Shown: positions 7,167-47,184, numbered from the stretch's first letter. The stretch is 64,000 nt of DNA from Bacteroidaceae bacterium (GCA_045576655.1 JAZNGW010000028.1:35885-99884); one strand, 5' to 3'. Notes: generated from the letters alone by a model not told the origin. Numbers and translations are program-made.

Positions 7167-10100
7167 TTATCGCACAACAACCTTAACCACGCTGTTAGCA
7201 GAGCGAACCATATATATGCCTGGCTGCTGCACTGCTGCGGATGAAAGTTTAGTGCCTCCGAGTGTGAATACTTCGAAATCGTCAGTGCCATGCACGATGA
7301 TGCGTCGGTCGACAACTGACACGCTCATGCCCGCGCCTTCGCCTTGTGACGCAACTCCGTCAATGCCGACAGCATCGGTGGAAATTCCGCCCTTGCTGAG
7401 CGCCACCCATCCGAACAAGTCGGCTGTGCTGCTGTTGTTCTTTATGCCAGTCTTGCTGGAGTCGACCAGTTTGCGCACTTTCATGTATTCAACATAAGTC
7501 TTGTCGTCAATCGTCTCATTATATACACTAGATTGACGAAGCACTGCGCCACCTGTGTAATTGAACGTTCTCATAGAAGCAAAGACAAGAGGATCTTCAA
7601 GGAGCAGCGTGTCATTGCGAGTCACATTGCCCTCTTCATCGTAATCACAATCCGTAAAGTACAAGTTACGGGCTCCGATGCCGTACACTTTCTCGTCGCT
7701 CAGTCCTGCAGTAAGAAGCAGACCTTCCTCCTCGTCGATGCACTCGGAGCCTGGTGTGAACGCTGCATAGAAGAGAGGCTGCGCTGTGGTCACCTGCACT
7801 CCTGCTGCTTCCTCATGGAAGGTGATGACCTTGAATCCTTCATTTGTGACATCCCACACTCTGACGAAATAAGGTTCGGCTGTGATTGTAGGGTTCAGTT
7901 CAGCCAATACGACAGGTGTGATGCCCTTAGGGAACGGTTTTGCAAACTTCACTTCAAGGGTGTCGCCCATTACGGCTGTAGTGGCCACCTCGATGTCCAT
8001 GTCGCCAAACGTGTGGTTGCCCAGAGGCAGAGACATAAACGGCACATTTTCAACCTTAGTGAAAGAAACAGGGTCGTCCTGATGCTGAAGAGCGAAATAC
8101 TTGTATGTGAACTTATCCTTTTCGACATCTGTCACGAGGCTTGTAGGAACTGCGTCAGCGTTCTTGCTTGTCACGAGACCTGTAAACACGGCAGGCGCCA
8201 CCTCATAAGGATAATTGAATTCAACAGTCACAGGGTCTGTATCCAAGATAGCAAGCGAGCCGTACTTGACGAAGTCGTTGCCCGTTGCGCTTGGTATGGA
8301 AATCATCACCTCGTTAGTTGTTCGAACCTTTCTGTCGGAGTCGTACTCCCTGATTCGGTAATACACAGCGCCCGATTTGCCAAGCAATGTGTCGTTTACC
8401 GTAAGCGTAGTGTTCTCCACGTCATACAGCGTCCTTACAGCGACATACAGATTGCTCTCCTCCTCAATCTTGCGCTCAAGAACTACAGAGTCAGCAAGTT
8501 CGCCGTTAGGATGGTTCCACTTAAGCGTCGCCACCTTCTTTGAAGCGGCAAAATCAACGGTCAGGTTTGAAGGTGATTTATACACCACGCGTGGCACGTA
8601 CTGATAGTTTTCGTTGTATCCGAGTCCGGAGTTCATCTCTGCATAGAACTCGCCAAGGATGGAAAGTCCTGTGCCATACTTATATATCTTAGAGCAGTCG
8701 GCCTCGCTGTTCCAATAGGCGTAACGCTCCACGTAAGGCCATCTGTTGAGGTTCTCAAGGATTGGACGCATGCCCTCATAGTTCGCCTGCTGTGCGGCTT
8801 CTGAGAACGAGCGGTCGCCTGCGAAGATTCCGTTGTTGTTCCATGAAGCACCCCACACAAACTCAGATATCCAGATTGGGCGCTTGTAGTCGTTGTACCA
8901 GTTCTGGAGGCCTGGGAACGAACCTGCAGGCCAGTAGCAGTGCATGTCGAGGATGTCGCAACGCCATCCGCGCGCGTCAATCTCGTTCATGAACTCGCGC
9001 AACCAGTTCAGGCTTCCGTCGTGCGACGAAGGCGAGCAGAGTCGCATACCTGTAGCCATTGCATCCTCCCAGTACGCCAACACCTCAGCCACTGTGCCAG
9101 GCTGGTCGTCGGCCGAGTTGCCTGGTTCGTTATCGGTCTTCATGTGAGGAGAATATGTCACACGTCCGCAGTCAGCCACAGCCGGCCATGATTTGTGAAT
9201 CTTGTGAGGCACTGTCTCGGTGTCCACGCCGCGATCCTGACCAGGTCCCCAGTCGTAGCACCATGCGGAATTCAGCACCTGGTTGCCCTCGGCGCCTGTG
9301 TCGCTGGCAAGTCCCTTCTTCTGCGCGTTGTTCCACTTGAACACACGGTAGGAAGTGATGTGCTTGTCGAGCACGGCAGGGAGAGTGGCAAACTCAAGGT
9401 CTTCATGGTCGGCAATGAAGCATCGGCTATAACCGCGTCCACGCGCACCGATAGAGAATGTGACCATATATCCTCGCTTGAGTTTAAAACTTCGTATTGC
9501 ATTGTTGAGTTTCGCATCTGTAAGAGTGTTCATGTAGCCGCCGCTATTCTCAAGTCCGAAGTCATTAACTGCCGTACCCTCGAAGTTCTGCTCCGAGTAG
9601 ACTGTAAGCGGCTTGAAGTCCTTGCCGTATGGATAAATGATAGTACCGGTGTTGTACATTCTCACCTGGCAGTTGACGTTATTCTGGGCAGCCTCGCCAT
9701 TGATGTAGATGTTCTGCATGTGGCGCGCCAAGACGAGCGACGGTTTTGTCTTGTCGATTATCACAACGGCGTCAGGGTTGACGATATTGACGCTTCCCGC
9801 TGTTGCAAACGGTGTGATGCCCGCAATGTGGAAGTCTACAGCCTCTGTGACGTTGATTGCCGATGTCACCTGGTAGGCAGTGTTAGGGTTGTTCTTTGCG
9901 TCCTTGAGGAATGCTGCCACGTTCTCCAGATCGGCATACGATGTTTCGCCGTCCTCATAGAGACCCTTAGCCATGTTTATCGCGCTCAGCAGCACCTCGT
10001 TCTGGCTGCTTGCGTATTCCTGTTCTGCCGCCTCGATTGCTGCAAGCAGGTTAGCATAAGCCGCACTTGACTCCTCAGCCTCATCCGTAGCCTTGCGCAA

Positions 10101-13472: not shown

Positions 13473-13617
13473 TTTCGTTATTAGGGTTTGTTAACGAGCC
13501 CTCGTTTGTAAATAAATGAGCCCTCGTTTGCAAATAAATGAGCCCTCGTTCGTAAATAAACGCTACACCGTTTGCAAATAAATGCAGAAGCGTTGATATA
13601 AAAATGCTTCTCCGTTC

Positions 13618-14511: not shown

Positions 14512-14537
14512 ATCAATGCGTTTAATTACAAAGGTTA

Positions 14538-23840: not shown

Positions 23841-26800
23841 CTACTGCACAAGCACCTTCTTCTTGTTTACGATGTAGACGCCTCGTGGAAGCCCCTCGAG
23901 CGTGTTGCCCACTTTCTGTCCGTGGAGGTTGTACACCTCGACCGGTTTGTCAGAGTCTTCGCCAACCGTTTCATCCGCCTCGACCTTGTCGATTGCCGTC
24001 ACTGTCTCCGGCGAGATTGTTCCGTAGTAGTAGAGGCGGAAGTTGTCGAACACGCTCCAGTAGTTTGTACCTGCAGAAGGGCACTTGATTCCTATCTTGA
24101 GCGACGCGCCTTCGTCGTCCAGACGTGTGGCCACTTCGTTCTCGTAGGTTGAGAGCTTGAGATATGCCTCAGCCGACGCCATAGTGTTAGGTATGTAGCG
24201 TGTAGATGTGCCCACCTCGACATCATCGGCGTGGAGACGGGTGCGCCTTGCGCCTGCGGCGATGTTCTTAACCTTCACGGTGCTGGCTCCGGCATAGAGA
24301 ACGGTGTTGACATTGTCTGTGCCGCCTGTGTAGGAGTCGTAGACTGCATCGTATGCTCCCGGACGCTGGAAGGCCTTGGCGCGGAGCTGGTATGTTCCGG
24401 CTGGAAGACCGGTGATTGTCTGGTTGAAGTCGAACGACGACTGGAAGTACTCAAGGCATGAATTGCCGAATGTCGGTTTGGTTGACCACCCGCTGTTGTC
24501 GTCGATGGCGGCGTTCTTGACAAGGAATGTGATATTGAACGGACGGTACATGCTGGTTGGTGTGGCCTTGCCGAGGAAGTTCATTCCGGCTGTGCGAACC
24601 TGCTCTATCAGGGCTGTCACTTCGTTGGCAGTGGCTGCATCTGCGGCAAGGGATTCGACCGTAGCGATATCGTCGTCGAGAGCTGCGTCTGCTCCTGGCA
24701 CGTCCTCTGTGTGGGAAGTGAGTTTGAGTCGGCGCACATTGCTGATCATCTCGTCGAGTTCGGCAAGTGCCTTGTCCTTGAGTCCTGTCTCAAACTGCTC
24801 TATCTCGTCGGCCTGAAGGAATATCCATCGCTGTGCTGTGGCTGAGTTGTAGAGGTCGAGCGTGTTGGCTGCCACTCCTCCGTTGGCTGTAGCGGTAAAT
24901 GTGGCAGGATTTGACTTGGCTTCCGGGTGGATAATCCAATATCCGCGAGTCTTGAAACTGCCGAGTGCGACGTCCTGACGTCCCTTCATGAGGTGGAAGT
25001 CTTCGTTGGCGGCAGGTGTTGACTTGACGGCTGTCCTGATGCCGTTGGCCCCGTTGGCGGTGAAGGTGAGGTAGCGTCCTGTGGCAGCGTTGCGGAACTG
25101 GTAGTACTGGTTGTCTGGAGTGAAGGAGACGTACCATGCGGCACTGTCGTTGAGAGTGACGTCGCTTCCTGCCATGTCCATCCACTTGACGATGCCGTTC
25201 TTCTGTTCCACGAGATAGGAAGTGGCAAGTCCGCGGTCGGCAGATTCGCTCTTGATGTAGTACTTGGCATTGTCGTCCTGCTCGAAGACGTATGCCGGCA
25301 AGCAGAATGCTCCGGAATAGAAGTTGACAGGAATGAGTCCGTCTTCGCAGAATCCCTGGTTGATGAGGGAGTTGCCGATGTAGAAAACCTCTGTGTCGTT
25401 CCAGTTCTGAGGACCTGCCCAAGCACCTGGTTCGAGGTGTGCACCGTTGTGAGGGTATTTGTTGTGGAAGATGTTGTCCTGCGAGTAAGTCTCGCCCTTG
25501 TTTATAACGCCCCAGTGACCGCCGTCGTAAGCGCCGGTGATGACGAGGTTATCGTTGTTTTCCCAGAAACGCACTGCCTCGTTGGCACGGTCGCCCGCCC
25601 AGTAGCCGTTCACGGTTTCACGAAGCGGAGAAACTACCCATCCGCCCCAAATCTCGAGCGTACCGCCACCGATGCCGTGGTTCATCTCGTGCATGCAGGT
25701 TCCTGCACGCTGTCCCATGTTCGTACCGATACGCATTCCGCCGCCATATCCGCAGTCGGCGGTAGGGGTGCCAGGCGAGAATGTGCACGACACGTTGAAT
25801 CCGCGTATGCTGGTGTAGTTTGACCAGTAAGTAGTGGCAACCGTAAGTGCCGTGTTGATACGGTCGTTGTGTGCGGCGTCGCCACCGTTGTTGTACCAGT
25901 ATGTCACTCGTCCCTGCGGCAGAGTGGACATCTTGATGACATCGCCATAGCCCACAGCATAGCCCTTGGTGATAGCATAGGCACGCATGTAGTAGACTGT
26001 GGCCGGTTGCATGTCCATCCAGTACATGCGTCCGTTGTTTTCCAGATATTTTGTTGTGCGGTTGTCGAGCACGGTAGGGTCAGGTTCTGTGCTCCAGCAG
26101 AATCCCTGTTCAAGGATTTCGGAAGAAGTGACACCGCTCACCGTCATACGTCCGAATGCGGCGATGGCACCACGCACATAGCGCTTGTCAGTCACCACCG
26201 TAGGAACGGCGCCTGTAGGGTTGGTGAGGTTGTACTCAAACTCTGCCTTCTCAAGTTTCACGATCTCGGCAGCCATCTCTTCGAAAGTGGCGTCGAGGTT
26301 GTCGTTGACAGCCTTAGCCCCGTTGATTACGGCGAGGAACTTCTCCGCACCCTTCATCACACCGTCGCCATAAGCCACCTCAGCCTTGGCGATTGCGGCA
26401 GTGAGGTCGGCGTAAGCCTTTATCGAAGCCTTTGCCTGCTCCACAGCCTCGCGAAGCGGAGTGGACACAGCAGTGTAGCCATCGGCATTGTCCTTCTGGA
26501 GTTCAGCCTCAGCGGCTGCAATGCACGCCTTGAGGTTGTCGAGCACAGCATTGTGCATCTTCTCCCCTATGTATGGTTTGGCAGTCTCGATATAGCCCTC
26601 AAGTTCCTTCTTGAAGTCAGCAAACTCGCCACCGGCATAGTAGAGGCGGAAGTTGTCGACCGAAATCCAGTTGCCCGTAGCGCCTTCGGCAAGGAATCCT
26701 ACCGTAGCCTCATTCTCGATGTTGACGAACGTCACAGAATACTCATCCTTGCCCACAACCTCAGTCTTGGAGTTGTTGGCAACGACCCACGCACCAGTCT

Positions 26801-28511
26801 GAGCAGCGGAAGAACCCTCCTGAATGTTTTGGGCGGCAGCCTTGAGCACATAGACACCGAGTCCGAGACCATTCACCTTCTGCATCACGCTGCCATCGCC
26901 TACCTTACCGCCAGCACTGGTCCACTTCTCTACGTATGTGTTGCCATGTTTCAGAGAGAAGGCAGTGTTAGACTGGGCAGCCATGCCCGTCTGCGTCCAT
27001 CCCTCAAAACTGTTCTCAAAACTGTTGTTCACAATCAGGTGGCTCATATCCACCGGATTGTCCACCGAAGCCGATGTCCAGCGGTACTTCTCGATAGCAG
27101 AGAGCAGGTCGCTGTTAGCCATGATGACATCCGACTGACTTGCCGACTCATCGGCATACACAGCCTTAGCCGCATCGAGAGCAACCTTAAGGTCGGCAGC
27201 ACCCTTGCCGCTACCGTCGCCATAGAGAGCCTCAGCCTCGTCGATGGCATTCTTCAGTCCGTCCTTCACCGAAGCATCGCCAATGCCCTTGTAGACTATC
27301 ACGAAGCGCTGCCAGTTCAACCACTGCTCAGTGCTTGTCATCTTAGCGCTCACCGTAAGTTTTCCGTCCGAACCGACCTTCACATCGTCAGTCCACACAA
27401 GACTTCCGTCATGAGCCAGCGCCTGGCCGCACGACTGCATGCCGTTAGGAAGGAACTTTCCGTTAGAGGCAATCCAGTTGTTGCCCTGGTCATTGCCCAC
27501 AGCATACTCCAACGCACCTATAGCCACAGCACTCGCGCTTGCCGAAGTCTCACCCGAAGCAGTAACCTTCGGAGCAGTGCCACTGCCGTCCTCACGATAG
27601 AGAGCCTGCCAGCCCACAGAGTAAGAACCCTGAGGCACAGTCTGAGTCTGGCTCAAAGTGAAAGCAGAATGATACACCTCAAACTCGCCCCATCCGAAAG
27701 TGGCGTTGCTCGTAGCCCAGTTAGCCAAGTCGCCCTTGCCCACCATGTCGGCATCGTCGAAAAGGAACGACACGTCGACAGGCTCAGCCACATCGGCATA
27801 CACTGCCCAGAAGAGCGTGCGTGCAGCATCGATCACCTGCGAGGCCGTAGCGTCAGCATTGTCATAGACCGCCTTGGCGTCAGCAATGTACTTGGCATAC
27901 ACATCAGCCTTTCCGGCATCAGCCACTGCTTTGTACACGCCATACATCTGGCGCTTCACCTTATATGCCATGTAGCGGCCGTTGGTCACGTTCTCCTCCT
28001 TGATGAAAGCCCACTTCGTATGGCCATCACCCCCAACGAGAGTCACATGCCCGCCGAAGTCCCAGGTCACGTCAAGGTCCTTCCCCCACTTGGTATTGTT
28101 GAGAGTATAGACATTGCTCCCCTCTGCCGTCTCCGTGTAAGCAAAATACGGGTTAGCATTCTGGTCGCAATACACATCGTCGGCATTCAGACTTGGGCAT
28201 GAAAGAAAGAGCGTGTTATACGTCTTCATTCTAACTCTCACGTTTCCGCCCGAAACAAAAGCATAGCAGCGCTGAGGGTCTGACGCCGTAGCGTCGCCGT
28301 TGGTTAGTCGGGTAGCACAAGCGTTTGTGCCCCATGTCATACCGTTGATAAGGAAGGCGTCAGCCTCCACATTATAGAAATACACCACGTCCGACGATTT
28401 CAGTCCGTCGAGGCTCTCGGCAGGAACCTGAGGTTCCGTCCATGCCTGAGCCACGGCCGTCATAACCAAAGTGCCCCATAGAGCCATGGCAAAATAGATA
28501 CGTTTCATCAT
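23841..28511 (-). CDS. Giant T9SS cargo protein, paralog P3 (tandem duplicate of P2 architecture): HExxH zincin-like + ricin-like lectin + T9SS CTD
   Basis: Start at 'MMKRIYFAMALWGTLVMTAVAQAW'. 'GTCMHEMNHGIGGG' (nt 25677..25691). 'AQRWIFL' QxW motif. Tail '...VEVYNLHGQKVGNTLEGLPRGVYIVNKKKVLVQ'. Confidence 0.75.
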   Translation of the reverse strand: MMKRIYFAMALWGTLVMTAVAQAWTEPQVPAESLDGLKSSDVVYFYNVEADAFLINGMTWGTNACATRLTNGDATASDPQRCYAFVSGGNVRVRMKTYNTLFLSCPSLNADDVYCDQNANPYFAYTETAEGSNVYTLNNTKWGKDLDVTWDFGGHVTLVGGDGHTKWAFIKEENVTNGRYMAYKVKRQMYGVYKAVADAGKADVYAKYIADAKAVYDNADATASQVIDAARTLFWAVYADVAEPVDVSFLFDDADMVGKGDLANWATSNATFGWGEFEVYHSAFTLSQTQTVPQGSYSVGWQALYREDGSGTAPKVTASGETSASASAVAIGALEYAVGNDQGNNWIASNGKFLPNGMQSCGQALAHDGSLVWTDDVKVGSDGKLTVSAKMTSTEQWLNWQRFVIVYKGIGDASVKDGLKNAIDEAEALYGDGSGKGAADLKVALDAAKAVYADESASQSDVIMANSDLLSAIEKYRWTSASVDNPVDMSHLIVNNSFENSFEGWTQTGMAAQSNTAFSLKHGNTYVEKWTSAGGKVGDGSVMQKVNGLGLGVYVLKAAAQNIQEGSSAAQTGAWVVANNSKTEVVGKDEYSVTFVNIENEATVGFLAEGATGNWISVDNFRLYYAGGEFADFKKELEGYIETAKPYIGEKMHNAVLDNLKACIAAAEAELQKDNADGYTAVSTPLREAVEQAKASIKAYADLTAAIAKAEVAYGDGVMKGAEKFLAVINGAKAVNDNLDATFEEMAAEIVKLEKAEFEYNLTNPTGAVPTVVTDKRYVRGAIAAFGRMTVSGVTSSEILEQGFCWSTEPDPTVLDNRTTKYLENNGRMYWMDMQPATVYYMRAYAITKGYAVGYGDVIKMSTLPQGRVTYWYNNGGDAAHNDRINTALTVATTYWSNYTSIRGFNVSCTFSPGTPTADCGYGGGMRIGTNMGQRAGTCMHEMNHGIGGGTLEIWGGWVVSPLRETVNGYWAGDRANEAVRFWENNDNLVITGAYDGGHWGVINKGETYSQDNIFHNKYPHNGAHLEPGAWAGPQNWNDTEVFYIGNSLINQGFCEDGLIPVNFYSGAFCLPAYVFEQDDNAKYYIKSESADRGLATSYLVEQKNGIVKWMDMAGSDVTLNDSAAWYVSFTPDNQYYQFRNAATGRYLTFTANGANGIRTAVKSTPAANEDFHLMKGRQDVALGSFKTRGYWIIHPEAKSNPATFTATANGGVAANTLDLYNSATAQRWIFLQADEIEQFETGLKDKALAELDEMISNVRRLKLTSHTEDVPGADAALDDDIATVESLAADAATANEVTALIEQVRTAGMNFLGKATPTSMYRPFNITFLVKNAAIDDNSGWSTKPTFGNSCLEYFQSSFDFNQTITGLPAGTYQLRAKAFQRPGAYDAVYDSYTGGTDNVNTVLYAGASTVKVKNIAAGARRTRLHADDVEVGTSTRYIPNTMASAEAYLKLSTYENEVATRLDDEGASLKIGIKCPSAGTNYWSVFDNFRLYYYGTISPETVTAIDKVEADETVGEDSDKPVEVYNLHGQKVGNTLEGLPRGVYIVNKKKVLVQ

Positions 28512-28553
28512 TTTTACTTTAAGGTGTTTATAATACAACTAGTTAACAAACAA

Positions 28554-37909: not shown

Positions 37910-38068
37910 ATATAATTATTGTTTTAAAATTGCAAATATAACCCTTTTAGCCTAACCTTCCAATATTGAAAAACGGCACAACTATGGACAATATCGACAT
38001 TTACGCCCTCGCATCCAAAAGAGCAGTCTCCTCTCTTATCGAACAACAAACTGCGGAAAATCCAAACA

Positions 38069-38152
38069 TAGGCTAAGTTCGTATAAACTCAGACTAAGTT
38101 TATACAGATTCAGACTAAGTTTGTGTAAACTCAGTCTAAGTTTAGAGTTTTG
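38069..38152 (+). repeat. Array of four exactly 21-bp-phased units, copy C
   Basis: Units start at 38069, 38090, 38111 and 38132. Near-identical to copy D. Confidence 0.85.
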
Positions 38153-38349
38153 AGCGCAGAGCAGGGCGAAAGAAACGTATCTTAAGAACAAGGACGAGGG
38201 TTCTCTGTTTATGCAGCAAGGCAGCCCCGAAAGACTGCCCCGCATGAATGTATGCAATATTATGTGTTTCCGTTCATCGTTAAACGTTAAACCTTCATCG
38301 TTCAACCTAAAAATCTACCCCCCAACTTTTACTTTTTACTTCTTACTTT

Positions 38350-41300
38350 TTACTTCTTGTAAATCTTGAAAGTATTTCCTCCCTGACGCATGATGAACAT
38401 GCCTTGGCGAGGGGCTCCGCTGAGCTGTGCGCCTGTGACAGAGTAGTACTGAGCAGGAGCATTGAAGTCGGGACGAGCATCGCTGTCTTTCTCAACGGAC
38501 TCGATGCCAGTCTGCTGTGTGTAAGAATAGAACTCAATGCGCTTAACGCGGAACTCCTGTCGTGCTGGTCCGTTGGCGATGTCGGTTTGGAACACTACGA
38601 CAACTTCCTGCGGCTGGTCAAGGGTGAAGTAGAGTCCGTAAGCGTTGTCGCCGGCAGTTGCTTCGGCAATCTTGCAATGGGCTATTGACTGCTGCTCGAT
38701 GTCGGTTGTATTGAGCGTAGCGTCAGCCACATATAGATATCCAAGATTCATGTTAAAGATGGTTTCATAGGCAGCACCAAAGAAGTAGCGCCCTGCAGGA
38801 AGGCTGATTCGACGATAAAGGCGAGAGTTTGTCAGGTCTGAACCTTCAGGGCAGTTAGCCTTGTCGTCGTAGACTCCGAGGGTGAGGCAGTCGTAGCCGG
38901 GCCACTTGTCGAGTCCTCCGCGCGTACCTTCAGAGAACGACTCAACGCCGTAGTTTTCGGTAGTCCAGTAGAGAGGGTATGTGAATCGTGTTGTCACGCT
39001 CGCATCAAGACGTGTGAAACCGTTTGCCTCAACGAAATACTCTTCCGTAATGTCGGCTGCGCCAATCTCCTCAGGCATGCTGGTCTTGATTTTGCCCTCG
39101 GCAAGGAACTTATTGTATGCGTCGTTGAGTGCAGTGTAAGCAGTGCTGATATCGCTAAGAGGGGCATCTGGACTTACCTTCTTGGCCTCCTCTACTGCTA
39201 CAGCAAATTCTTCGTACGCTTCAGCTGAATACGAACCTGTGTTGTCGTTAATTTTCACGGTCTTGAGTTTCTCATCAAGGAGGGCGATGAGTTCTTCCAA
39301 CTTGGTGTAGGTCATCTCGCCGTAGTAGAGGAGCTTCACGCCTTTAGCGCGAAATTCCTTCGTAGAGCTGCCTTTTGCAAGATTGGACTGGAAACCTATA
39401 ACCACTTCTGCTTCCTCTTCAAGGGTGAAGAACAATCCATGCCATGAGCCGTCGTTGTTGTCTGGCGCCTTGTTGATGTGATAGTAGGCAATTGAGTTTT
39501 CCGGAATATCTGCGGTAGGCATTGTCTCTGATGCCACAAAGATGTATGATTCGTCAGCAATTGCGTAAGTCGTGTTGTAGGTTGCGCCGAAGTAGTAGCG
39601 TCCTGGCTGCAGAGTCACTCGCTGGTAAATGCGAGCGTTGGCAAGATTACCGTCGGTGTTAGATCCAGCATCGTTCCAAACACCGAGCGAAAGGCAATCG
39701 TAGCCTGGATAGCTGTCAATACCGTTACGGTTACCTTGTCCGCCAGCAGGGATGTTGTAGTTCTCTACTGTCCAATATAGCGGAGTGCCGTAGCGTACGC
39801 CCAGCGTTCCGTTCGAACTGCGCGAGAAGTTGTCCACCTCGGAGAGCACGTCAATAGTGACGTCTGCTATCTCGCCCTGCATTGGTGCACCTCCAGGGTT
39901 TGCGCCGTTCACCTTGAAATCCTCGTATGCAGTGCTCAAAGCATTGTATGCTGCGCTGATTTCCTCATAGGACGCATCTGGACCTGTCTGCATAGCCAAA
40001 TCTAAGGCTTCCTGAAGTTTCGCAAGGGCTTTCTTCGAATAGAATCCAGTATTGTCAGTAGGTTCAACACCGCCAACTATTGCATCCAGCTCGATAATCA
40101 GGTCCTCAAGAGCCATATAGTCCATTGCACCGTAATAGAGGAGTTTGACATCGTCGGCACGGAACTCCTGGGTTGCGCTGCCTTCAAGCAGATTCACCTG
40201 GAAACCGAGCACTACCTCCTGTTCCTCCTCCAAAGTGAAATATATGCCATAGAACGAGCCGTTTGTTTTTCCCTTGTTAAGACGTGCATGTGCTATAGAC
40301 TGCTCCTCCATGTCATAAGAGTCGACCAAGCCGTCCGCTGCAAAGATGTACGCCTGGTCAGAAAGCTGGTAAAGGGCGTTGAAAGTAGCGCCGAAGTAAT
40401 AACGTCCTGCTTCAAGACGGATCTTACGGTAGATACGTGCATTGCCGAGGTTGCCCTCTTCGTTTGCATCGCGATCGTTCCAAACGCCGAGCATAAGGGC
40501 GTCCTTGCCCTCGTACTTATCCAGTCCGGCCTTTACGCCATCGCCTCCGTTAGGTATAAGGAAGTTCTCTACTGTCCAATGCTGCGGAGCAGCGAAACGT
40601 GTTGTCACAGCAGGGTCAAGACGGCTGAAGTTGTTTGCCTCGACAAGCGCGTCTTCCGTATAGTCCCAACTGTTACTTTCATTAGGAGCGCCACCCTCGT
40701 TAGTTCCGTTGTCACGAAGTTCCTCGTAGGCTGTATAGAGAGTTTTCATAGCGAGCTGCTGAGCAACGTCGTCTGCTCCTACATACTGTTTCTGAGCTTC
40801 CACGAGGTCAGCGAAAGCGTTCACCTTTTCGCGGCTGAACTTTCCTGTATTATAGTTTGACTGCTTACGCATCTCGGCAACCTTCTCCTCATATATTTGG
40901 ATGAGACCTTCGAGAGTGATAGCCTCGGATGAATTTTCATCAAATTCAACTGCAAACACAGCAGCAAACTTGTTCACTGGAGCGTCAGGCATAGTGACTA
41001 CGAGTCCGTCTATATCCATTTCGAAGTCGACTTCACCGTGGCCGAGGAGTGTGACCTTCTTGACCTTCCCACTATAATACTTTGACGCCAGTCCGAAGGA
41101 TTCAATTACATATTTCCTGCTTGTAGGATAACGGAGAGTTGTGGCAAATACCGTATCGTTGCGCTCTACGAAACGTACGTCTGCTGCCGAATAGTTGTTG
41201 CCCTCATTGAATCCCTGCGAATTGAGAGGATTTGACGCCTCAGCAAGCGGCCCTTCGCCGAAGGTCTTCCACTGACGGGTGCCATAGATACTAATGCTGT

Positions 41301-42513
41301 TCACGTCCATCCATGCCTTTATGTCGTTGAGAATGGCAATTTCCTTCTCGTCGATAGTTCCGTCGCTCTTTACAGGAACGCTGAGCAAGAGGTTTCCGTT
41401 CTTGCTGACGATGTCGACGAGCATGCTGACCACCTGCTGCGCACTCTTGTATTCACTGCGTTCGTAAGTACCCTTGTCGTAGTGCCATGTTCCCAAACAG
41501 GTACATGTCTGCCAGTACTTCTCCTGCGGACGATCTGGTATACCGCGCTCCACGTCCCAAAGCATCAAATCCTTGTGCTCTTTTTCCAGAATCTTTCCTG
41601 TCACCACAACCTGCTGCTCGCCGCCGTTCTGCTTAGCGCTGGTGTTGTAGTAGTGCGACAGGATGTTCAAACCAACCGACTCGTCGCAACCATAGAACGG
41701 CAGCACCGTATCGTCGAAATAAATCATGTCAGGACTGAACGTGTTGATACACTCAATCACGCGGTTCTGGAATTTCATCTTATACTCTGCCGACGGCTGA
41801 GAAGCTCCGTTACCCCATGCCCATTGACTATGTATGGTTCCTACGTTCTCATAGCCCGTACTCGGTTCGTGGTCCTGAGCATAAAGCTCCTGCGGGTCAT
41901 ATCCCTCCCACCATTGTCCTGCGCCATCGGCCTTTGTGAGAAGTCCGTCGTAGTGGCGCGACATCTCAAGCCATGTCCATGCATGGCTTGCGTGCATACT
42001 CACGCCGAGAGGCAGTCCGTACTTATCGCATGCGTCAGCCCATCCCTTCACAATATCCTTCTTCGGTCCAATGTTCACGGAGTTCCATTCCTGGTAAGGG
42101 CTGTTCCACAAGTCAAAGTTGTCGTGATGGTTGCCTAAAGTCATGAAATAGCGCGCTCCCACGCTCTTGTAAAAGGCAATGAGCTCATCGGGATTCCAAT
42201 TCTCTCCCTTCCAATCGCGGCAGAGTTCCTTCAGTCCGTAGTCGCTCATCCACCCGAAAGTCTGGGCATGATATCTTGACTGCCACTCATTCTCGTAATA
42301 CATGTGGCGGCCATACCAATCGCCCGACTCAGCATGACACTGAGGTCCCCAGTGCGCCCAAATGCCGAACTTGGCATCCTTAAACCATTCGGGACACTCC
42401 CATTGCTTCAGACTTTCCCAATCTGGGCTATACTGTCCTGTCTCAACAGGCTCATTTTGCGCCATGACATTCATAAACGACATGAACGCCAAAACAGAAA
42501 CTAATAACTTCAT
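38350..42513 (-). CDS. GH29 alpha-L-fucosidase-family enzyme with three helical-spacer + unknown-module repeats and a T9SS CTD
   Basis: Start at 'MKLLVSVLAFMSFMNVMAQNE'. Same GH29 motifs as the neighbour. Three modules end '...EFRADDVKLLYYG', '...EFRAKGVKLLYYG' and '...EFRVKRIEFYSY'. Tail '...GMFIMRQGGNTFKIYKK'. Confidence 0.8.
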   Translation of the reverse strand: MKLLVSVLAFMSFMNVMAQNEPVETGQYSPDWESLKQWECPEWFKDAKFGIWAHWGPQCHAESGDWYGRHMYYENEWQSRYHAQTFGWMSDYGLKELCRDWKGENWNPDELIAFYKSVGARYFMTLGNHHDNFDLWNSPYQEWNSVNIGPKKDIVKGWADACDKYGLPLGVSMHASHAWTWLEMSRHYDGLLTKADGAGQWWEGYDPQELYAQDHEPSTGYENVGTIHSQWAWGNGASQPSAEYKMKFQNRVIECINTFSPDMIYFDDTVLPFYGCDESVGLNILSHYYNTSAKQNGGEQQVVVTGKILEKEHKDLMLWDVERGIPDRPQEKYWQTCTCLGTWHYDKGTYERSEYKSAQQVVSMLVDIVSKNGNLLLSVPVKSDGTIDEKEIAILNDIKAWMDVNSISIYGTRQWKTFGEGPLAEASNPLNSQGFNEGNNYSAADVRFVERNDTVFATTLRYPTSRKYVIESFGLASKYYSGKVKKVTLLGHGEVDFEMDIDGLVVTMPDAPVNKFAAVFAVEFDENSSEAITLEGLIQIYEEKVAEMRKQSNYNTGKFSREKVNAFADLVEAQKQYVGADDVAQQLAMKTLYTAYEELRDNGTNEGGAPNESNSWDYTEDALVEANNFSRLDPAVTTRFAAPQHWTVENFLIPNGGDGVKAGLDKYEGKDALMLGVWNDRDANEEGNLGNARIYRKIRLEAGRYYFGATFNALYQLSDQAYIFAADGLVDSYDMEEQSIAHARLNKGKTNGSFYGIYFTLEEEQEVVLGFQVNLLEGSATQEFRADDVKLLYYGAMDYMALEDLIIELDAIVGGVEPTDNTGFYSKKALAKLQEALDLAMQTGPDASYEEISAAYNALSTAYEDFKVNGANPGGAPMQGEIADVTIDVLSEVDNFSRSSNGTLGVRYGTPLYWTVENYNIPAGGQGNRNGIDSYPGYDCLSLGVWNDAGSNTDGNLANARIYQRVTLQPGRYYFGATYNTTYAIADESYIFVASETMPTADIPENSIAYYHINKAPDNNDGSWHGLFFTLEEEAEVVIGFQSNLAKGSSTKEFRAKGVKLLYYGEMTYTKLEELIALLDEKLKTVKINDNTGSYSAEAYEEFAVAVEEAKKVSPDAPLSDISTAYTALNDAYNKFLAEGKIKTSMPEEIGAADITEEYFVEANGFTRLDASVTTRFTYPLYWTTENYGVESFSEGTRGGLDKWPGYDCLTLGVYDDKANCPEGSDLTNSRLYRRISLPAGRYFFGAAYETIFNMNLGYLYVADATLNTTDIEQQSIAHCKIAEATAGDNAYGLYFTLDQPQEVVVVFQTDIANGPARQEFRVKRIEFYSYTQQTGIESVEKDSDARPDFNAPAQYYSVTGAQLSGAPRQGMFIMRQGGNTFKIYKK

Positions 42514-42586
42514 ACAATAACCATTAAATAGACTTTTATACATATATTTACTTTTATCATTAACAATCACCAGCGTATTGCTTTTG

Positions 42587-42832: not shown

Positions 42833-42840
42833 TATTTTTG
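42833..42840 (+). promoter_or_regulatory. Candidate -7 box (TATTTTTG) for the AraC-family gene
   Basis: Exact TAnnTTTG match 28 nt upstream of the ATG at 42868. Confidence 0.3.
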
Positions 42841-42867
42841 CACTTAATAAGCCCAGTTCACGACAAT

Positions 42868-43746
42868 ATGAAACAAAACATCGACGACCTTCATATTTTG
42901 ACGCTCCACGCAGGATATGCCGAGCACTACGGCGACTGGAACTGGAAAAACGTCAGAAGTCCATTTGCCAGACTATATTACGTGACGGAAGGTACGGCGC
43001 AGGTTATTATACACAAAACGGAAACTAACGACTCGGAAACAGTTGTACTGAAGCCTAACCACATGTACCTGATTCCACCATTCACGCTCCACAGCAACGT
43101 ATGCGACGGAAACTTCAAGCACTACTACATTCACGTGATTGAAAACACATCCGACCGCTTCCACTATCTCTCCGAATTCGTCTTTCCGAGAGAAATACCG
43201 TCTGAAGATGTGTCCGACCTCACCCTGTTCCAAACACTGGCAAAAATCAACCGCATACTGACGCTATCGGAAAGCGACCCCGAATCGTACAATAACGACA
43301 AGTTGCTCAAGCAAAATGTCGTCCTGGGCAAGCAGCGTCCACTGTGCGACAAAGTAGAATCGAGAGGCATACTTTACATTCTTTTGTCCAGATTCCTCAA
43401 GTTAGCCAAGCCTGCGAAGACCGTAAAGGACGAGCGCATCATCCGAGTCATCGAATACATGAACGCCAACATCGCCAGAACTACCAACATCGAGGAGCTG
43501 GCACAATGCGCAAACCTGTCGAAAGACCATTTCATACGCAGATTCCGCAAAGAGACAGGCACCACACCGCTGACCTACTTCACTGCACGAAAAATCGAAG
43601 TTGCCGAATCCATGCTCATTGCCACAGACTTGCCGATAAAAAGCATTGCCGACAAACTGGGATTTGAAGACACTTCATACTTCTACCGGTTGTTCAAGAA
43701 GCACGTAGGCAAATCGCCTAAGAAGTATCGCGAAAGTTCCTACTAA
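42868..43746 (+). CDS. AraC-family transcriptional regulator (cupin-like sensor + dual HTH)
   Basis: N-terminal 'LTLHAGYAEHYGDWNWKN...RLYYVTEG' cupin-type domain. C-terminal 'IEELAQCANLSKDHFIRRFRKETGTTPLTYF...GFEDTSYFYRLFKK'. Confidence 0.85.
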   Translation: MKQNIDDLHILTLHAGYAEHYGDWNWKNVRSPFARLYYVTEGTAQVIIHKTETNDSETVVLKPNHMYLIPPFTLHSNVCDGNFKHYYIHVIENTSDRFHYLSEFVFPREIPSEDVSDLTLFQTLAKINRILTLSESDPESYNNDKLLKQNVVLGKQRPLCDKVESRGILYILLSRFLKLAKPAKTVKDERIIRVIEYMNANIARTTNIEELAQCANLSKDHFIRRFRKETGTTPLTYFTARKIEVAESMLIATDLPIKSIADKLGFEDTSYFYRLFKKHVGKSPKKYRESSY

Positions 43747-43809: not shown

Positions 43810-44745
43810 ATGATATACAACGAAATAGGAAAAACAGGAATGAAGGTGTCAAACCTATCGTTCGGAGCGTCCTCATTAGGAGGAGTATTCCATAGCATCA
43901 AGGAAAACGATGGCATCGACGCCGTTATTACCGCTGTGGAGAACGGCATCAACTTCATTGACGTGTCGCCCTACTATGGGCATCTCAAGGCGGAGACCGT
44001 GCTGGGCAAGGCGCTTAAGCTTATTCCTCGCGACAAATACTACCTATCGACAAAGGTGGGGCGCTACGGCAAGGACGGTGTGAACTACTGGGACTACTCG
44101 GCAAAGCGTGCGACCGAAAGCGTATACGAAAGCATGGAGCGCCTCAATGTGGACTACATCGACCTGATTAACGTTCACGACATCGAATTTACCGACCTCC
44201 AGAAAGTGGCTGAAGAGACGTTGCCTGCACTTGTCGAACTCAAGAAGAAAGGCATTGTCGGTCATGTAGGCATAACTGACCTTCAGCCCGAAAATCTGAA
44301 ATGGGTGATTGAGCATTCTGAAGAAGGTACGGTGGAGAGCGTTCTCAACTTCTGCCACTATTGCCTTAACGATGAGCTCCTGGTTGACTTCCTCGACTTC
44401 TTTGAAGAGCGTGGCATCGGAGTTATCAACGCCTCGCCACTCTCTATGGGACTCTTGTCCGAACGCGGTGCGCCAGATTGGCACCCTGCTCCTGAAGCGT
44501 TGAAAGGGGCTTGCACTCGTGCCGCCCAATACTGCAAGGAGAAGGGCTACCCTATCGAGAAACTTGCCGTGCAGTACTCCACAAACCTCAACCCTCGCAT
44601 CGCTACGACTCTATTTAGCAGTGCAAATCCTCAAAACGTACTGAAGAACATACAGTTCGTGAACGAGCCTATGGATGAGCAACTCGTGAAAGAGGTTAAG
44701 GCTATCATCGGCGACCAGATGGGAGCAAGATGGAAAAACAGTTAA
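43810..44745 (+). CDS. Aldo/keto reductase, candidate L-galactose (or L-fucose) 1-dehydrogenase
   Basis: AKR pattern 'GFGASSLGGVF...INFIDVSPYYG...LSTKVGR...'. Function assigned from operon context with a cog3618-type lactonase and a Zn-ADH. Confidence 0.65.
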   Translation: MIYNEIGKTGMKVSNLSFGASSLGGVFHSIKENDGIDAVITAVENGINFIDVSPYYGHLKAETVLGKALKLIPRDKYYLSTKVGRYGKDGVNYWDYSAKRATESVYESMERLNVDYIDLINVHDIEFTDLQKVAEETLPALVELKKKGIVGHVGITDLQPENLKWVIEHSEEGTVESVLNFCHYCLNDELLVDFLDFFEERGIGVINASPLSMGLLSERGAPDWHPAPEALKGACTRAAQYCKEKGYPIEKLAVQYSTNLNPRIATTLFSSANPQNVLKNIQFVNEPMDEQLVKEVKAIIGDQMGARWKNS

Positions 44746-44777
44746 TTCACCACCAACCACATCAACTTTCCCCAAAT

Positions 44778-45692
44778 ATGATTATAGACGCTCATGCCCA
44801 CCTGTGGCTCAAACAGGACACCGTGGTGGACGGCATGCCCATCCGCACTCTCGAAAACGGCCGCTCGCTCTTCATGGGCGAGGTGCGCCAGATGGTGCCT
44901 CCGTTCATGATTGACGGAGTGAACAGCGCCGAGGTTTTCCTTTCCAACATGGACTACGCCCAAGTGTCGGCGGCTGTCATCACCCAGGAATTCATCGACG
45001 GCATTCAGAACGACTATCTCATGGAGGTGCAGGAGAAATACCCCAATCGCTTCCTCGTATGCGGCATGTGCGAATTTCGCCAGCCCAACTTCCTCAACCA
45101 CGCTAAGCAATTGCTCGACAGCGGACTGCGCGCAATCAAGATTCCGGCGCAACGCCTGCTGCTCAAGGAAGGCAGGGTTAGCCTCGTCAGCGATGAGATG
45201 ATGCAGATGTTCCACCTCATGGAAGAGCGTGGAGCTATCCTCTCCATCGACCTTGCCGACGGCGATCTGCAAGTGGGCGAAATGGAGGAAATCATCAAGG
45301 AATGCCCGCGTCTGAAGATTGCCATAGGCCACTTCGGCATGGTAACTCGCGAGGGTTGGCAGGAGCAAATCAAATTGGCTCGCCACGAGAACGTAATGAT
45401 TGAGTCGGGCGGAATAACATGGCTCTTCAACGACGAGTTCTACCCGTTCCACGGTGCAGTGCGCGCCATCAAAGAAGCCGCCGACATAGCCGGTATGGAC
45501 AAACTGATGTGGGGGTCGGACTACCCGCGCACCATAACCGCCATAACCTACCGTATGTCGTACGACTTCGTGAGCAAGAGCAAGGAACTCACTCAGGAGG
45601 AAAAGGCCTTGTTCCTCGGCAAGAACGCAGAGCGTTTCTACGGATTCACCGACCTCGTCGAACTGCCTTACATAAAGAACATGTCAGAATAA
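44778..45692 (+). CDS. Amidohydrolase-2 (cog3618-type) sugar-lactonase candidate
   Basis: 'MIIDAHAHLW' metal-binding HxH at the N-terminus and 'MWGSDYPR' near the C-terminus. An alternative start at 44730 would overlap the AKR gene by 16 nt. Confidence 0.7.
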   Translation: MIIDAHAHLWLKQDTVVDGMPIRTLENGRSLFMGEVRQMVPPFMIDGVNSAEVFLSNMDYAQVSAAVITQEFIDGIQNDYLMEVQEKYPNRFLVCGMCEFRQPNFLNHAKQLLDSGLRAIKIPAQRLLLKEGRVSLVSDEMMQMFHLMEERGAILSIDLADGDLQVGEMEEIIKECPRLKIAIGHFGMVTREGWQEQIKLARHENVMIESGGITWLFNDEFYPFHGAVRAIKEAADIAGMDKLMWGSDYPRTITAITYRMSYDFVSKSKELTQEEKALFLGKNAERFYGFTDLVELPYIKNMSE

Positions 45693-45710: not shown

Positions 45711-46730
45711 ATGAAAGCTATACAGATAAACGAACCTGCCAGCATGCAGGTCATCGAAATGGAGAAACCGCAAGCGCCAGCAGCAGGTGAAGTGCTTCTA
45801 CGAATGGAATACGTAGGATTCTGCGGTTCCGACCTCAACACCTACCTCGGCAAGAACCCTATGGTGAAGATGCCCGTAATACCAGGCCACGAAGTTGGTG
45901 CAGTAATCGAGGCTGTAGGAGCCGACGTGCCCGAGACTCTCAAGCCAGGCATGGTAGTGACCGTAAACCCTTACACAAACTGCGGCAAATGCGCATCTTG
46001 CCGCAACGGACGCGTCAACGCTTGCGAGCATAACGAAACCCTCGGAGTGCAGCGCAACGGTTCTATGCGCGAGTTCCTCACTCTCCCGTGGCAGAAAATC
46101 ATCCCTGCCGACGGACTCGATTCGCGCACTTGCGCCCTCATCGAACCTATGAGCGTAGGCTTCCACGCAGTTGACAGAGGAGAGGTGACCGACATCGACA
46201 CCGTCCTGGTCATCGGTTGCGGAATGGTAGGACTCGGTGCAGTAGTGCGTGCAGCTCTCCGCGGAGCCACCGTCATCGCTGCCGACATTGACGACGAGAA
46301 ACTCGCCCTGGCAAAAGAACTCGGCGCTACGCACACCATCAACTCCATGACTGAAGACATCCACGCACGTCTCAGCGAAATAACCTCAGGCTTCGGTCCC
46401 GACGTCATTGTCGAAGCTGTAGGCAGCGCAAGAACTTACCAGACCGCCATCGAGGAAGTAGCCTTCACGGGGCGCGTAATCTTCATCGGATATGCCAAAA
46501 CGGCTGTAGAATTCCAGACCAAACTCTTCGTACAGAAAGAACTCGACATACGCGGTTCACGCAACGCCACTCCGTCCGACTTCCGTGCTGTCATCAATTA
46601 CCTGAAGAGAGGCTACTGCCCTACCGACCGCCTCATCAGCCGAGTTGCCAATGCAGAAGACGCCCACACAGCCATGAAAGAATGGGCTGACGCACCGGGC
46701 AAGGTGTTCCGCATTCTCATCAAGATGTAA
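45711..46730 (+). CDS. Zinc-dependent medium-chain dehydrogenase, candidate L-galactonate 5-dehydrogenase
   Basis: 'GFCGSDL', 'GHEVGAVIEAVG', a 'CGKCASCRNG' structural-Zn loop and a 'VIGCGMVGLG' Rossmann motif. Confidence 0.7.
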   Translation: MKAIQINEPASMQVIEMEKPQAPAAGEVLLRMEYVGFCGSDLNTYLGKNPMVKMPVIPGHEVGAVIEAVGADVPETLKPGMVVTVNPYTNCGKCASCRNGRVNACEHNETLGVQRNGSMREFLTLPWQKIIPADGLDSRTCALIEPMSVGFHAVDRGEVTDIDTVLVIGCGMVGLGAVVRAALRGATVIAADIDDEKLALAKELGATHTINSMTEDIHARLSEITSGFGPDVIVEAVGSARTYQTAIEEVAFTGRVIFIGYAKTAVEFQTKLFVQKELDIRGSRNATPSDFRAVINYLKRGYCPTDRLISRVANAEDAHTAMKEWADAPGKVFRILIKM

Positions 46731-46806: not shown

Positions 46807-47184
46807 ATGTCCTGCTATCCAAGAAAAGAATACGACCAGCCCGTAAAGCGCTATTGCCAAACCCTTGAACTAAAGAACGACAAGGCTCTTATCGAAAAAT
46901 ACATCAAGGCACACGACCAATACCACCATTGGCCTGAGGTCCGCCAAGGCATAAAGGCAGTAGGAATACTCGAAATGGAGATTTACATCTACGAAAACAA
47001 ACTCTTCATGATTGTCGAGACTCCTGAAGACTTCGAGTGGGACAAGGCGTTTGCCCAACTCGCCACTATGCCGCGCCAAGCTGAATGGGAAGACTTCGTA
47101 TCCGTGTTCCAGCAGTGTGAAGAGGGTAGCACATCCAACGAGAAGTGGCACCTCATGGACCGCATTTTCCACCTCTACGAATAA
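46807..47184 (+). CDS. L-rhamnose-mutarotase-family (RhaM-like) sugar mutarotase
   Basis: 125 aa. 'KRYCQTLELKNDKALIEKYIKAHDQ..WPEV...GILEMEIY...LFMIVETPEDF' fits the RhaM/ferredoxin-like mutarotase fold family. Confidence 0.7.
   Translation: MSCYPRKEYDQPVKRYCQTLELKNDKALIEKYIKAHDQYHHWPEVRQGIKAVGILEMEIYIYENKLFMIVETPEDFEWDKAFAQLATMPRQAEWEDFVSVFQQCEEGSTSNEKWHLMDRIFHLYE

Follow-up and report, generated by a model that had tools for sequence, protein, structure and literature searches.

How could a glycan-harvesting locus without a SusC/SusD pair bring its enzymes to the outside of the cell and take up the products? This question is raised by a stretch of 64,000 nucleotides from a Bacteroidaceae bacterium (GCA_045576655.1 JAZNGW010000028.1:35885-99884; the whole stretch is called the window below), in which five giant proteins, here named BIG1 to BIG5, are encoded among glycosidase, transport and sugar oxidation genes. 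The gene map of all 64 kb was defined by listing the open reading frames (ORFs) and scanning their proteins with Pfam and NCBIfam models. With moderate confidence we read the region as a loosely organised mosaic enzyme cluster that is not a polysaccharide utilisation locus (PUL): five giants tagged for secretion by the type IX system (T9SS) are combined with finishing enzymes in the periplasm, import by FucP and oxidation of L-galactose.

The five large ORFs were all found on the minus strand at the coordinates given by the initial annotation; 23841..28511 and 38350..42513 are ATG-trimmed forms of the ORFs 23841..28538 and 38350..42570. The encoded proteins are multi-modular, about 1400-1660 aa long, and their catalytic modules are GH128-like, GH141 and GH29 domains and, in BIG2 and BIG3, a domain with an HExxH motif:

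7167-12152, minus strand: BIG1, 1661 aa, GH128-like fusion; full-length type-A-like C-terminal domain of ~70 aa at nt 7170-7379
18886-23445, minus strand: BIG2, 1519 aa, HExxH zincin-like domain (aa 864-1046, nt 20308-20856; HEAAH at nt 20593-20607) and beta-trefoil; compact tail resembling such a domain at nt 18889-19032
23841-28511, minus strand: BIG3, ~1556 aa from ATG, paralogue of BIG2 (HEMNH at nt 25677-25691); compact tail of the same kind at nt 23844-23987
30858-35492, minus strand: BIG4, 1544 aa, GH141 and FG-GAP; short-form compact tail at nt 30861-30998
38350-42513, minus strand: BIG5, ~1387 aa from ATG, GH29 and three DUF5013; divergent tail at nt 38353-38496

The initial annotation had proposed that the giants end in T9SS type-A sorting domains, and the two tail sequences that it quoted had been read correctly. 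Family profiles agreed with this proposal: every giant starts with a Sec signal, and its C-terminus shows homology to the type-A sorting domain, BIG5 being marginal. By inspection, all five Sec signals consist of a hydrophobic stretch and an A-Q cleavage motif, in BIG1 between MAGAQ and TW. A profile of the long C-terminal domain (CTD) was derived from the last ~72 residues of the ~925-aa family to which the BIG1 C-terminus belongs, the BIG1 tail included. In the PDB it matched HBP35 (E 7e-8) and RgpB CTDs (E 4e-7 to 3e-5), and more weakly a Flavobacterium johnsoniae CTD (E 0.015). After the profile had been rebuilt without BIG1 for leave-out scoring, BIG1 reached 77.5 bits (E 6e-23), aligned over 71 profile positions, followed by BIG3 (25.8 bits, E 8e-7), BIG2 (20.5 bits, E 3.5e-5), BIG5 (10.7 bits, E 0.04) and BIG4 with just 7.1 bits. 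A second profile represents the compact tails; its leave-out version, from which BIG1, BIG4 and BIG5 were excluded, recognised BIG4 with 41.9 bits (E 4e-12), and BIG1 and BIG5 were non-significant (BIG5 E 1.3). In hhalign the compact-tail profile aligned with the last 41 columns of the long-CTD profile (probability 98.2%, E 5e-14). The compact-tail profile itself retrieved F. johnsoniae and RgpB CTDs from the PDB, and it also matched the C-termini of the crystallised proteins 7jvi (a capybara-gut protein), 4kca (an arabinanase) and 8bbl (a hexosaminidase).

The position of these elements is strict. Across 694 kb, comprising the window and related loci, all full tail matches ended 0-4 residues from a stop codon, those in unrelated ORFs included. 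In the GH128-like family, long CTD, compact tail and dockerin replace one another at the C-terminus, and this alternation marks the position as an exchangeable targeting module. Even the BIG5 counterpart (52% identical) in the related locus L002 ends in a canonical compact tail (57.5 bits). When compared with solved type-A CTDs (RgpB 5hfs/7pq4, HBP35 5y1a, F. johnsoniae 8glk/8glj), the BIG1-type domain aligned over its full length of ~70 aa and carried the G-x-Y and K-V-x-V-K end motifs, whereas the compact tails matched the last ~40 residues and lacked the first beta-sandwich strands; in BIG2 to BIG5, 35-48 residues remain after the preceding domain. By profile homology, the tail of BIG1 is a genuine homologue of type-A CTDs, the tails of BIG2, BIG3 and BIG4 are a shortened derivative (35-48 aa) of the CTD, and the BIG5 tail is degenerate. 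On these grounds T9SS export of the five giants is predicted; a functional T9SS has been described in Prevotella (PMC11205867).

Several results weigh against this prediction. None of the tails reached the curated cut-off of the T9SS CTD hidden Markov models (HMMs) with which the initial annotation had suggested checking them: with TIGR04183, BIG2 and BIG3 scored 16.6 and 15.1 bits at a cut-off of 23 and BIG1, BIG4 and BIG5 gave no match, and with PF18962 only BIG2 was hit, at 13.4 bits and below cut-off. A CTD of seven strands does not fit into the few residues of the compact tails, the BIG5 tail remained marginal with both family profiles (E 0.04 to 1.3), and no T9SS core genes were recognised among the window ORFs.

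The other genes of the region form two opposing groups, as twelve minus-strand genes (6.2-42.6 kb), the giants included, lie opposite a divergent operon headed by an AraC-type gene (42.8-47.2 kb); two further enzyme genes lie just outside the range considered by the initial annotation:

1343-2638, plus strand: SGNH/GDSL esterase, Sec signal, no tail; outside the initially annotated range
2752-5532, plus strand: GH106 alpha-L-rhamnosidase, BT4145 type, Sec signal, no tail; outside the initially annotated range
6164-7087, minus strand: lipoprotein, 307 aa, no family match, N-terminus VTSC (lipobox) followed by GDDT
12618-13472 and 13618-14580, minus strand: two GLPGLI proteins (TIGR01200, 123 and 128 bits)
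14538-17108, minus strand: TonB-dependent-receptor-like outer-membrane barrel, 856 aa, CarboxypepD_reg domain
17411-18694, minus strand: FucP, L-fucose:H+ symporter of the major facilitator superfamily, inner membrane (TIGR00885)
28757-30565, minus strand: GH97 lipoprotein, 602 aa (GH97_N, GH97, GH97_C)
35522-37909, minus strand: GH29 and DUF5013, 795 aa, tail-less (PF01120)
42838-43746, plus strand: AraC-family regulator (HTH_18 85.6 bits, HTH_AraC 80 bits)
43810-44745, plus strand: aldo/keto reductase (PF00248)
44730-45692, plus strand: amidohydrolase_2 lactonase (PF04909)
45711-46730, plus strand: Zn-dependent dehydrogenase (ADH_N/ADH_zinc_N)
46807-47184, plus strand: rhaM-like mutarotase (NCBIfam/Pfam)

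HMM scans agreed with the initial annotation that the 64 kb hold no SusC/SusD, hybrid two-component or extracytoplasmic function (ECF) sigma factor gene. Models for SusC/RagA (TIGR04056), Plug/TonB_dep_Rec and SusD (PF07980, PF14322) matched none of the ORFs, and neither did histidine-kinase, response-regulator or ECF sigma models. As a control, the same SusC and SusD models did detect a true pair in the related locus L001 (Prevotella sp. RGIG2070), where SusC scored 322 bits with TIGR04056 despite the gene being truncated. Gene orders around the BIG2 homologues of the relatives were as follows:

L001, 3-14560, one strand: SusC-SusD-PKD-M16-BIG2
L002: GH97-GH29(large)-BIG2-aldo/keto reductase-lactonase-Zn-dependent dehydrogenase-GH29-mutarotase-GH28
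L004: GH43-GH127-GH97-BIG2
L006: housekeeping genes around the BIG2 homologue
L050: BIG2-GH43
L051: BIG2-like-GH115 ... GH28
L052: rhaM-AraC-GH31-BIG2-GH29(large)-GH141/FG-GAP-GH43

The absence of SusC/SusD therefore did not hold up as a feature of such systems: in L001 a SusC-SusD-PKD-M16 array directly precedes the BIG2 homologue, and gene order varies among relatives whose BIG2 is 93-97% identical. The PKD gene of L001 encodes a PKD-like lipoprotein and M16 is a peptidase; the array resembles a utilisation locus for proteins or glycoproteins. It is possible, if rather unlikely, that the cluster is the accessory arm of an ordinary SusC/SusD system elsewhere in the genome and appears SusC/SusD-less through the cut of the window and its mosaic gene order. 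The L001 arrangement speaks for this, as do the widely varying contexts of the homologues and the predicted periplasmic enzymes described below, which imply an outer-membrane importer. Against it, the 64 kb contain no SusC/SusD, and none was found up to 10 kb from the BIG2 homologues in L004, L006, L047, L050, L051 and L052, and both flanks of the window consist of unrelated genes.

The mosaic cluster that we prefer is held together by recurrent association. The BIG2-type gene recurs with BIG5-type GH29, BIG4-type GH141, AraC/rhaM and the oxidation operon across L002 and L052; the same four oxidation genes adjoin the BIG2 homologue in L002, the AraC and rhaM pair adjoins it in L052, and GH106 has the same position in L047. 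The recurring partners of BIG2 were GH29, GH141, GH43, GH97, GH127, GH115, GH28 and GH106, families that act as side-chain trimmers for pectin (rhamnogalacturonans) and for plant glycans of the arabinogalactan-protein type. Two results argue for caution about a coherent unit: gene order was not conserved in L004, L006, L047, L050 and L051, and no shared operator motif was found that would support co-regulation. Judged from these gene neighbourhoods, the association of the locus genes is real but loose, with a mosaic order. The AraC gene and its operon of aldo/keto reductase, amidohydrolase_2, Zn-dependent dehydrogenase and rhaM-like mutarotase were present as initially described, the AraC gene being divergent from BIG5 and the first gene of the catabolic operon. 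A 14-nt tandem repeat (CCGTGATTTAACTT, four copies, about 18725-18780) lies upstream of FucP within the 191-bp spacer between BIG2 and FucP; it was not enriched elsewhere (7 matches vs 3.8 expected, with at least 7 in 11 of 100 shuffles).

The glycosidase giants were assigned to families with clear scores. BIG1 shares its N-terminal ~760 aa with BIG2 and BIG3 (58-64% identical to BIG2-family proteins), and its C-terminal 902 aa are the counterpart of a widespread stand-alone ~925-aa family, so that BIG1 is a fusion. The GH128-like (Glyco_hydro_cc) domain at aa 960-1155 (nt 8688-9275) scored 59.1 bits with PF11790 at a cut-off of 21, aligned with the PDB GH128 entry 6uaq (E 8e-12) and keeps the glutamate motifs NEP and SEF, the latter of the (T/S)E(Y/F) type. 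BIG4 contains a GH141 domain (beta-helix and GH141_M, PF21231 117 bits) and FG-GAP/VCBS-type repeats (FG-GAP_3 96.9 bits), and BIG5 an alpha-L-fucosidase domain (PF01120, 287 bits) and three DUF5013. The first ~420 residues past the signal peptide (QTWTAPQVPGESLDGL...) form a conserved module in BIG1, BIG2 and BIG3 that had no Pfam match, and each of these three proteins has two beta-sandwiches ending in DNFRLYY that resemble carbohydrate-binding modules (CBMs). The gene for the 307-aa lipoprotein lies beside BIG1 and is 80% identical and syntenic, directly downstream of BIG1, in L047; its acidic post-cysteine motif CGDD suggests surface export, and it may be a surface partner of BIG1. One BIG1 homologue with a GH128-like domain, P0278, carries a type I dockerin at its C-terminus where a CTD would be expected.

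BIG2 and its paralogue BIG3 (~46% identity) differ from the glycosidases. BIG2 consists of Sec signal, N-terminal module, CBM-like beta-sandwiches with FIVAR-like helices, an FN3-like domain, the zincin-like domain, a beta-trefoil lectin and the tail. Neither protein gave a Pfam, NCBIfam or PDB sequence match, and no GH domain was detected in them; single-sequence PDB searches with BIG2, BIG3, the lactonase and the BIG1 tail returned nothing useful, and a full-family profile gave a FIVAR-like helical match only. In 60 homologues down to 42-46% identity, the H, E and H of HExxH were invariant, and so were a GTPTADCxYGG motif, several D/H/E positions and the candidate zinc-ligand positions D130, H133, E164 and D165; invariance of the motif over so many sequences argues for catalysis. 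An AlphaFold model of BIG2 residues 730-1260 (predicted local distance difference test, pLDDT, 88.5) comprised helical linkers, an FN3-like domain, an alpha/beta domain in which a helix bears the HExxH, and the beta-trefoil, which matched ricin/HA33-type lectins in Foldseek (E ~1e-5). As beta-trefoil and FN3 matches dominated the fold search with this multi-domain model, the catalytic domain was modelled alone with AlphaFold 2 (pLDDT 82.6). In the PDB, nearly all of its better Foldseek matches were metallopeptidases with metzincins on top (probability up to 0.97), namely BMP1, hatching enzymes, astacin, meprin, snapalysin, myroilysin, matrix metalloproteinases and fragilysin. The best two matches in a viral library were giant-virus proteins, one unannotated and one a putative metallopeptidase (TM-score 0.54-0.55).

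A profile search of 1.84 billion representatives (clusters at 50% identity) retrieved 717 clusters when E values up to 1e-3 were accepted and 195 when the limit was 1e-30. Proteins with the HExxH domain were 155-2495 aa long and carried it at many positions; among ten representatives checked, none had a peptidase Pfam domain, one had a dockerin, and others had DUF5013 or ricin domains. The small HExxH-domain protein P0246 ends in a type I dockerin in place of a CTD. Together with P0278, such a domain arrangement implies that the same catalytic modules are deployed on cellulosomes too. With metzincins and other zincins (astacin/BMP1, snapalysin, fragilysin) the BIG2/BIG3 domain shares an HExxH whose active-site helix is preceded by a beta-sheet and a backing helix, and with lectin- or CBM-fused glycoproteases (M60-like and others) it shares secretion and fusion to carbohydrate-binding modules; unlike the metzincins, it has no matching sequence model and carries Gly in place of the third His of HExxHxxGxxH. 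Fusions of a lectin to a metallopeptidase are the rule among glycoproteases. Motif, modelled fold and fusion partners thus suggest that BIG2 and BIG3 represent a new extracellular, zincin-like domain family with carbohydrate-binding modules that is probably proteolytic, and the M16 peptidase and SusC/SusD pair adjoining the BIG2 homologue of L001 support this view. As these two giants look like metallopeptidases in motif and model, the array would not be purely glycan-active. The initial statement that almost every gene is glycan-related was overstated in two respects: BIG2 and BIG3 are HExxH zincin-like without a GH domain, and the interval 12618-17108 holds a barrel and two GLPGLI genes.

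Two features of the models are unfavourable to a peptidase: similarity to PDB peptidases was weak (TM-score 0.28-0.35), and no third zinc ligand, Met-turn or glutamate helix could be assigned. BIG2 and BIG3 could accordingly act on a non-peptide glycan bond, as an esterase, a deacetylase or a new glycan-cleaving activity, or could be non-catalytic binding modules, which we regard as unlikely but worth keeping in mind. Besides the weak fold similarity, this alternative is favoured by neighbours that are nearly all plant-glycan glycosidases (GH29, GH141, GH43, GH97, GH127, GH115, GH28, GH31) and by the dockerin on one family member, as on cellulosomal carbohydrate-active enzymes (CAZymes). Evidence on the other side comes from the HExxH helix in its beta-sheet/helix arrangement, from better fold matches that were nearly all metallopeptidases in two libraries, from motif invariance down to 42-46% identity, and from the general frequency of lectin-metallopeptidase fusions among glycoproteases. 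A bolder extension of the proteolytic reading is unlikely, though of interest: a new secreted zinc-enzyme family of ~700 clusters, exported by herbivore-gut Bacteroidota with the help of a shortened T9SS signal, might cut plant proteoglycan cores (arabinogalactan-proteins, extensins) or pectin-linked glycoproteins and thereby couple proteolysis to removal of fucose and L-galactose, with the barrel/GLPGLI module as an importer independent of SusC/SusD.

The remaining enzymes bear on where breakdown ends. The 795-aa GH29 protein (PF01120, 295 bits) has a Sec signal cleaved between LNAQ and NV and no tail match; it is a recent paralogue of the N-terminal part of BIG5, with DNA repeats (D3/D5/D7/D8) that are 73-85% identical. 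The GH97 protein has the lipobox LLSC followed by SSQK, and its mature N-terminus CSSQK is without an acidic surface-export motif; its GH97 domain scored 246 bits, and the retaining alpha-galactosidase model 225 bits, which is below the cut-off of that model. GH106 scored 219 bits with Glyco_hydro_106 and 1348 bits with NF049897 (BT4145-type rhamnosidase; cut-off 1300), and both GH106 and the SGNH esterase have plain Sec signals without a tail. By the sorting rules for Bacteroidota, a periplasmic location is probable for the GH29 protein without a tail and for the GH97 lipoprotein, and is predicted for the neighbouring GH106 and SGNH esterase as well. With four enzymes predicted in the periplasm, oligosaccharides would have to cross the outer membrane, and the initial proposal of depolymerisation down to monosaccharides outside the cell is not upheld. 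A strictly extracellular scheme, in which T9SS cargo degrades the glycan fully and only L-fucose or L-galactose enters with no oligosaccharide import, is improbable: the window is without SusC/SusD, exo-type GH29 and GH141 are present among the exported proteins, and FucP is the sole recognisable sugar transporter, but the predicted periplasmic GH29, GH97, GH106 and esterase would have no substrate there if monosaccharides alone entered.

For uptake, the initial annotation had named FucP only. FucP is indeed present, but the resident barrel had been overlooked, a protein with a CarboxypepD_reg domain whose homologues show weak Plug matches and are named TonB-dependent receptor. It matched CarbopepD_reg_2; homologues showed weak Plug hits (20.1 bits vs a cut-off of 23.9), some matched PF14905, and the names given to them at NCBI include 'TonB-dependent receptor'. 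It did not qualify as a SusC/RagA protein, as TIGR04056 gave no match at E up to 10 and it is paired with GLPGLI proteins in place of SusD. A search that started from the barrel gave 39 loci, and the pairing with GLPGLI was kept in nearly all of them: in metagenome-assembled genomes (MAGs) of Prevotellaceae, Muribaculaceae and Porphyromonadaceae (L008-L049) the barrel was nearly always flanked by 1-6 GLPGLI paralogues on the same strand. No other genes of the locus were near the barrel in these loci, bar a distant GH97 match in L033, and in L049 it had a housekeeping context and adjoined BlaI/BlaR(M56)-TonB_C genes. The arrangement of FucP, barrel/GLPGLI and BIG1 recurs only in L047, a close relative that was identified separately. 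By its conserved pairing, the barrel with the GLPGLI genes is an independent outer-membrane module inside the locus. A role as glycan importer was considered and is not backed by this context, that is, by 39 loci without locus genes nearby save the GH97 of L033; within the locus the barrel is the sole outer-membrane candidate.

The sugar end of the pathway fits L-fucose and L-galactose, as had been proposed: FucP is an equivalog, the operon has the composition of the Phocaeicola vulgatus type, and the GH29 relatives include exo-alpha-L-galactosidases. FucP scored 548.6 bits with the TIGR00885 equivalog (cut-off 280). Aldo/keto reductase, lactonase and Zn-dependent dehydrogenase genes are consecutive and followed by the rhaM-like gene, which corresponds at family level only to an L-galactose route. 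The operon contains no dehydratase of the non-phosphorylative L-fucose route, and NCBIfam equivalogs for fuconolactonase and related dehydrogenases stayed far below their cut-offs. The L-galactose route of P. vulgatus (formerly Bacteroides), BVU_0219-0222, leads to D-tagaturonate (Hobbs 2014, as cited in PMC12632266). As outlined there, it shares with the present locus, at family level, an aldo/keto reductase-type L-galactose dehydrogenase, a lactonase, a dehydrogenase, a mutarotase and a FucP-type permease nearby; in contrast, uxaB/uxaA/kdgK/kdgA are not within this window, and in the close relative L047 this FucP is linked through fucI to the isomerase route for L-fucose. An authentic fucI gene (1127 bits) lies between BIG2 and FucP in L047, where the window has just the 191-bp spacer; it appears that the window lost fucI at this site or never gained it. 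In the PDB, the 795-aa GH29 protein was nearest to the fucosidase 7snk (246 bits) and to 7ljj and 7lnp, designated 'exo-alpha-L-galactosidase' (245 and 243 bits). On these family assignments, L-fucose is a plausible product, and so is L-galactose.

Taken as a mechanism, the cluster would operate as follows. T9SS would export the five giants, which would act at or near the cell surface on a glycoconjugate decorated with L-fucose or L-galactose, most likely plant cell-wall pectin or material of the arabinogalactan-protein type; plant proteoglycan or pectic material is the polymer we infer to be favoured, with host mucin as a less likely alternative, and it speaks against too firm an assignment that the substrate follows from family composition only. 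BIG2 and BIG3 would cut a protein or proteoglycan component. Fragments, not monosaccharides alone, would then reach the periplasm by a route that is not SusC/SusD-encoded here, candidates being porins, SusC/SusD pairs elsewhere in the genome and conceivably the resident barrel/GLPGLI module. There, tail-less GH29, GH97, GH106 and the esterase would finish breakdown, FucP would take up L-fucose and/or L-galactose, and the dehydrogenase, lactonase and L-galactonate dehydrogenase would oxidise L-galactose to D-tagaturonate.

A canonical PUL resembles the cluster in that glycosidase genes are grouped with those for a sugar permease, a regulator and catabolism, and in splitting its enzymes between outside and periplasm. 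It differs in its SusC/SusD pair and its hybrid two-component or ECF/anti-sigma sensor, neither of which is present here, in a regulator that is AraC-type in the present cluster, and in outer enzymes that are surface lipoproteins, where the present ones carry CTD-type tails. A closer precedent is 'Candidatus Paraporphyromonas polyenzymogenes', representing PUL-less rumen Bacteroidota with operon-like clusters of multi-modular CAZymes as T9SS cargo (Naas 2018, PMC5831590); that study cites Cytophaga hutchinsonii cellulases and F. johnsoniae ChiA. Common to both systems (PMC5831590) are the origin from gut or rumen Bacteroidota, large enzymes of many modules that include hypothetical regions and end in a sorting domain, the lack of SusC/SusD and unexplained product uptake, and since such clusters have already been described the locus concept is not new. 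However, the cargo of Naas 2018 scores above the TIGR04183 cut-off, whereas the present tails stay below it and are for the most part compact; that system targets cellulose and hemicellulose, whereas the families found here point to side chains bearing fucose and L-galactose; and, unlike there, two cargo proteins have a zincin-like instead of a GH domain and the lineage also possesses SusC/SusD pairs (L001). That the tails are instead a small surface-anchoring or carbohydrate-binding element and export occurs otherwise, e.g. in outer-membrane vesicles, is very unlikely: although the curated CTD HMMs fail, the compact forms have just 35-48 aa and the same tail occurs on the crystallised gut-metagenome CAZymes 7jvi, 4kca and 8bbl, which were named by their depositors without reference to T9SS, the tails show significant profile homology to experimentally verified CTDs, are strictly C-terminal and can be replaced by full-length CTDs and, as one homologue shows, by a dockerin, the module that anchors proteins to cellulosomes.

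On the reading of the tails as sorting signals, three elements would be new beyond Naas 2018, each suggested by sequence comparison: a compact CTD variant missed by curated HMMs, a large unannotated HExxH family among the cargo, and a pair of exported and periplasmic GH29 enzymes tied to an L-galactose operon. As all five cargo proteins escape the curated T9SS HMMs, the size of T9SS secretomes in Prevotellaceae is probably underestimated, and the short tail of 35-48 residues is a candidate minimal signal. The HExxH family travels with plant-glycan glycosidases and bears T9SS tails or dockerins; if its members are indeed proteoglycan-directed peptidases, protein cores would join the plant cell-wall components attacked by gut bacteria. 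The GH29 pair, near exo-alpha-L-galactosidases and accompanied by the oxidation operon, represents a candidate route of L-galactose harvest in herbivore guts.

The closest relatives of BIG2 and of the barrel were found in MAGs from the guts of goat, sheep, deer, cattle and horse that are designated Prevotella, Prevotellaceae or 'Bacteroidaceae bacterium', and protein identity to metagenome contigs reached 93-97%. The source is an uncultured herbivore-gut bacterium of the Prevotellaceae (Prevotella-like; Bacteroidaceae in GTDB). The genes that border the locus are unrelated to it, with RecO and a transporter at one end and pilus genes at the other:

30-1314, plus strand: CitMHS transporter fragment and RecO (ORF/Pfam map)
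49431-61207: type V pilus cluster (Mfa2, FimA-like, Fimbrillin_C, DUF3868-TPR, DUF3575)

G+C content falls past 48 kb, to ~0.43-0.46 in the pilus cluster vs 0.50-0.55 in the locus. The pilus cluster includes proteins of 1004 aa and 497 aa without any Pfam match; the 1004-aa ORF (49431-52445) was considered as a SusC candidate and dropped, being a lipoprotein without Pfam match within the type V pilus cluster. Three copies of an intergenic element of ~100 nt, 72-91% identical, were found at 28640-28739, 38057-38156 and 47208-47307, two of them between locus genes and the third right after the mutarotase gene. It is composed of sub-repeats of ~21 nt (CAGACTAAGTTT...) and might act as a terminator or regulatory site or represent a small mobile repeat. 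A 22-nt tandem repeat with four copies lies at 13493-13602 between the two GLPGLI genes.

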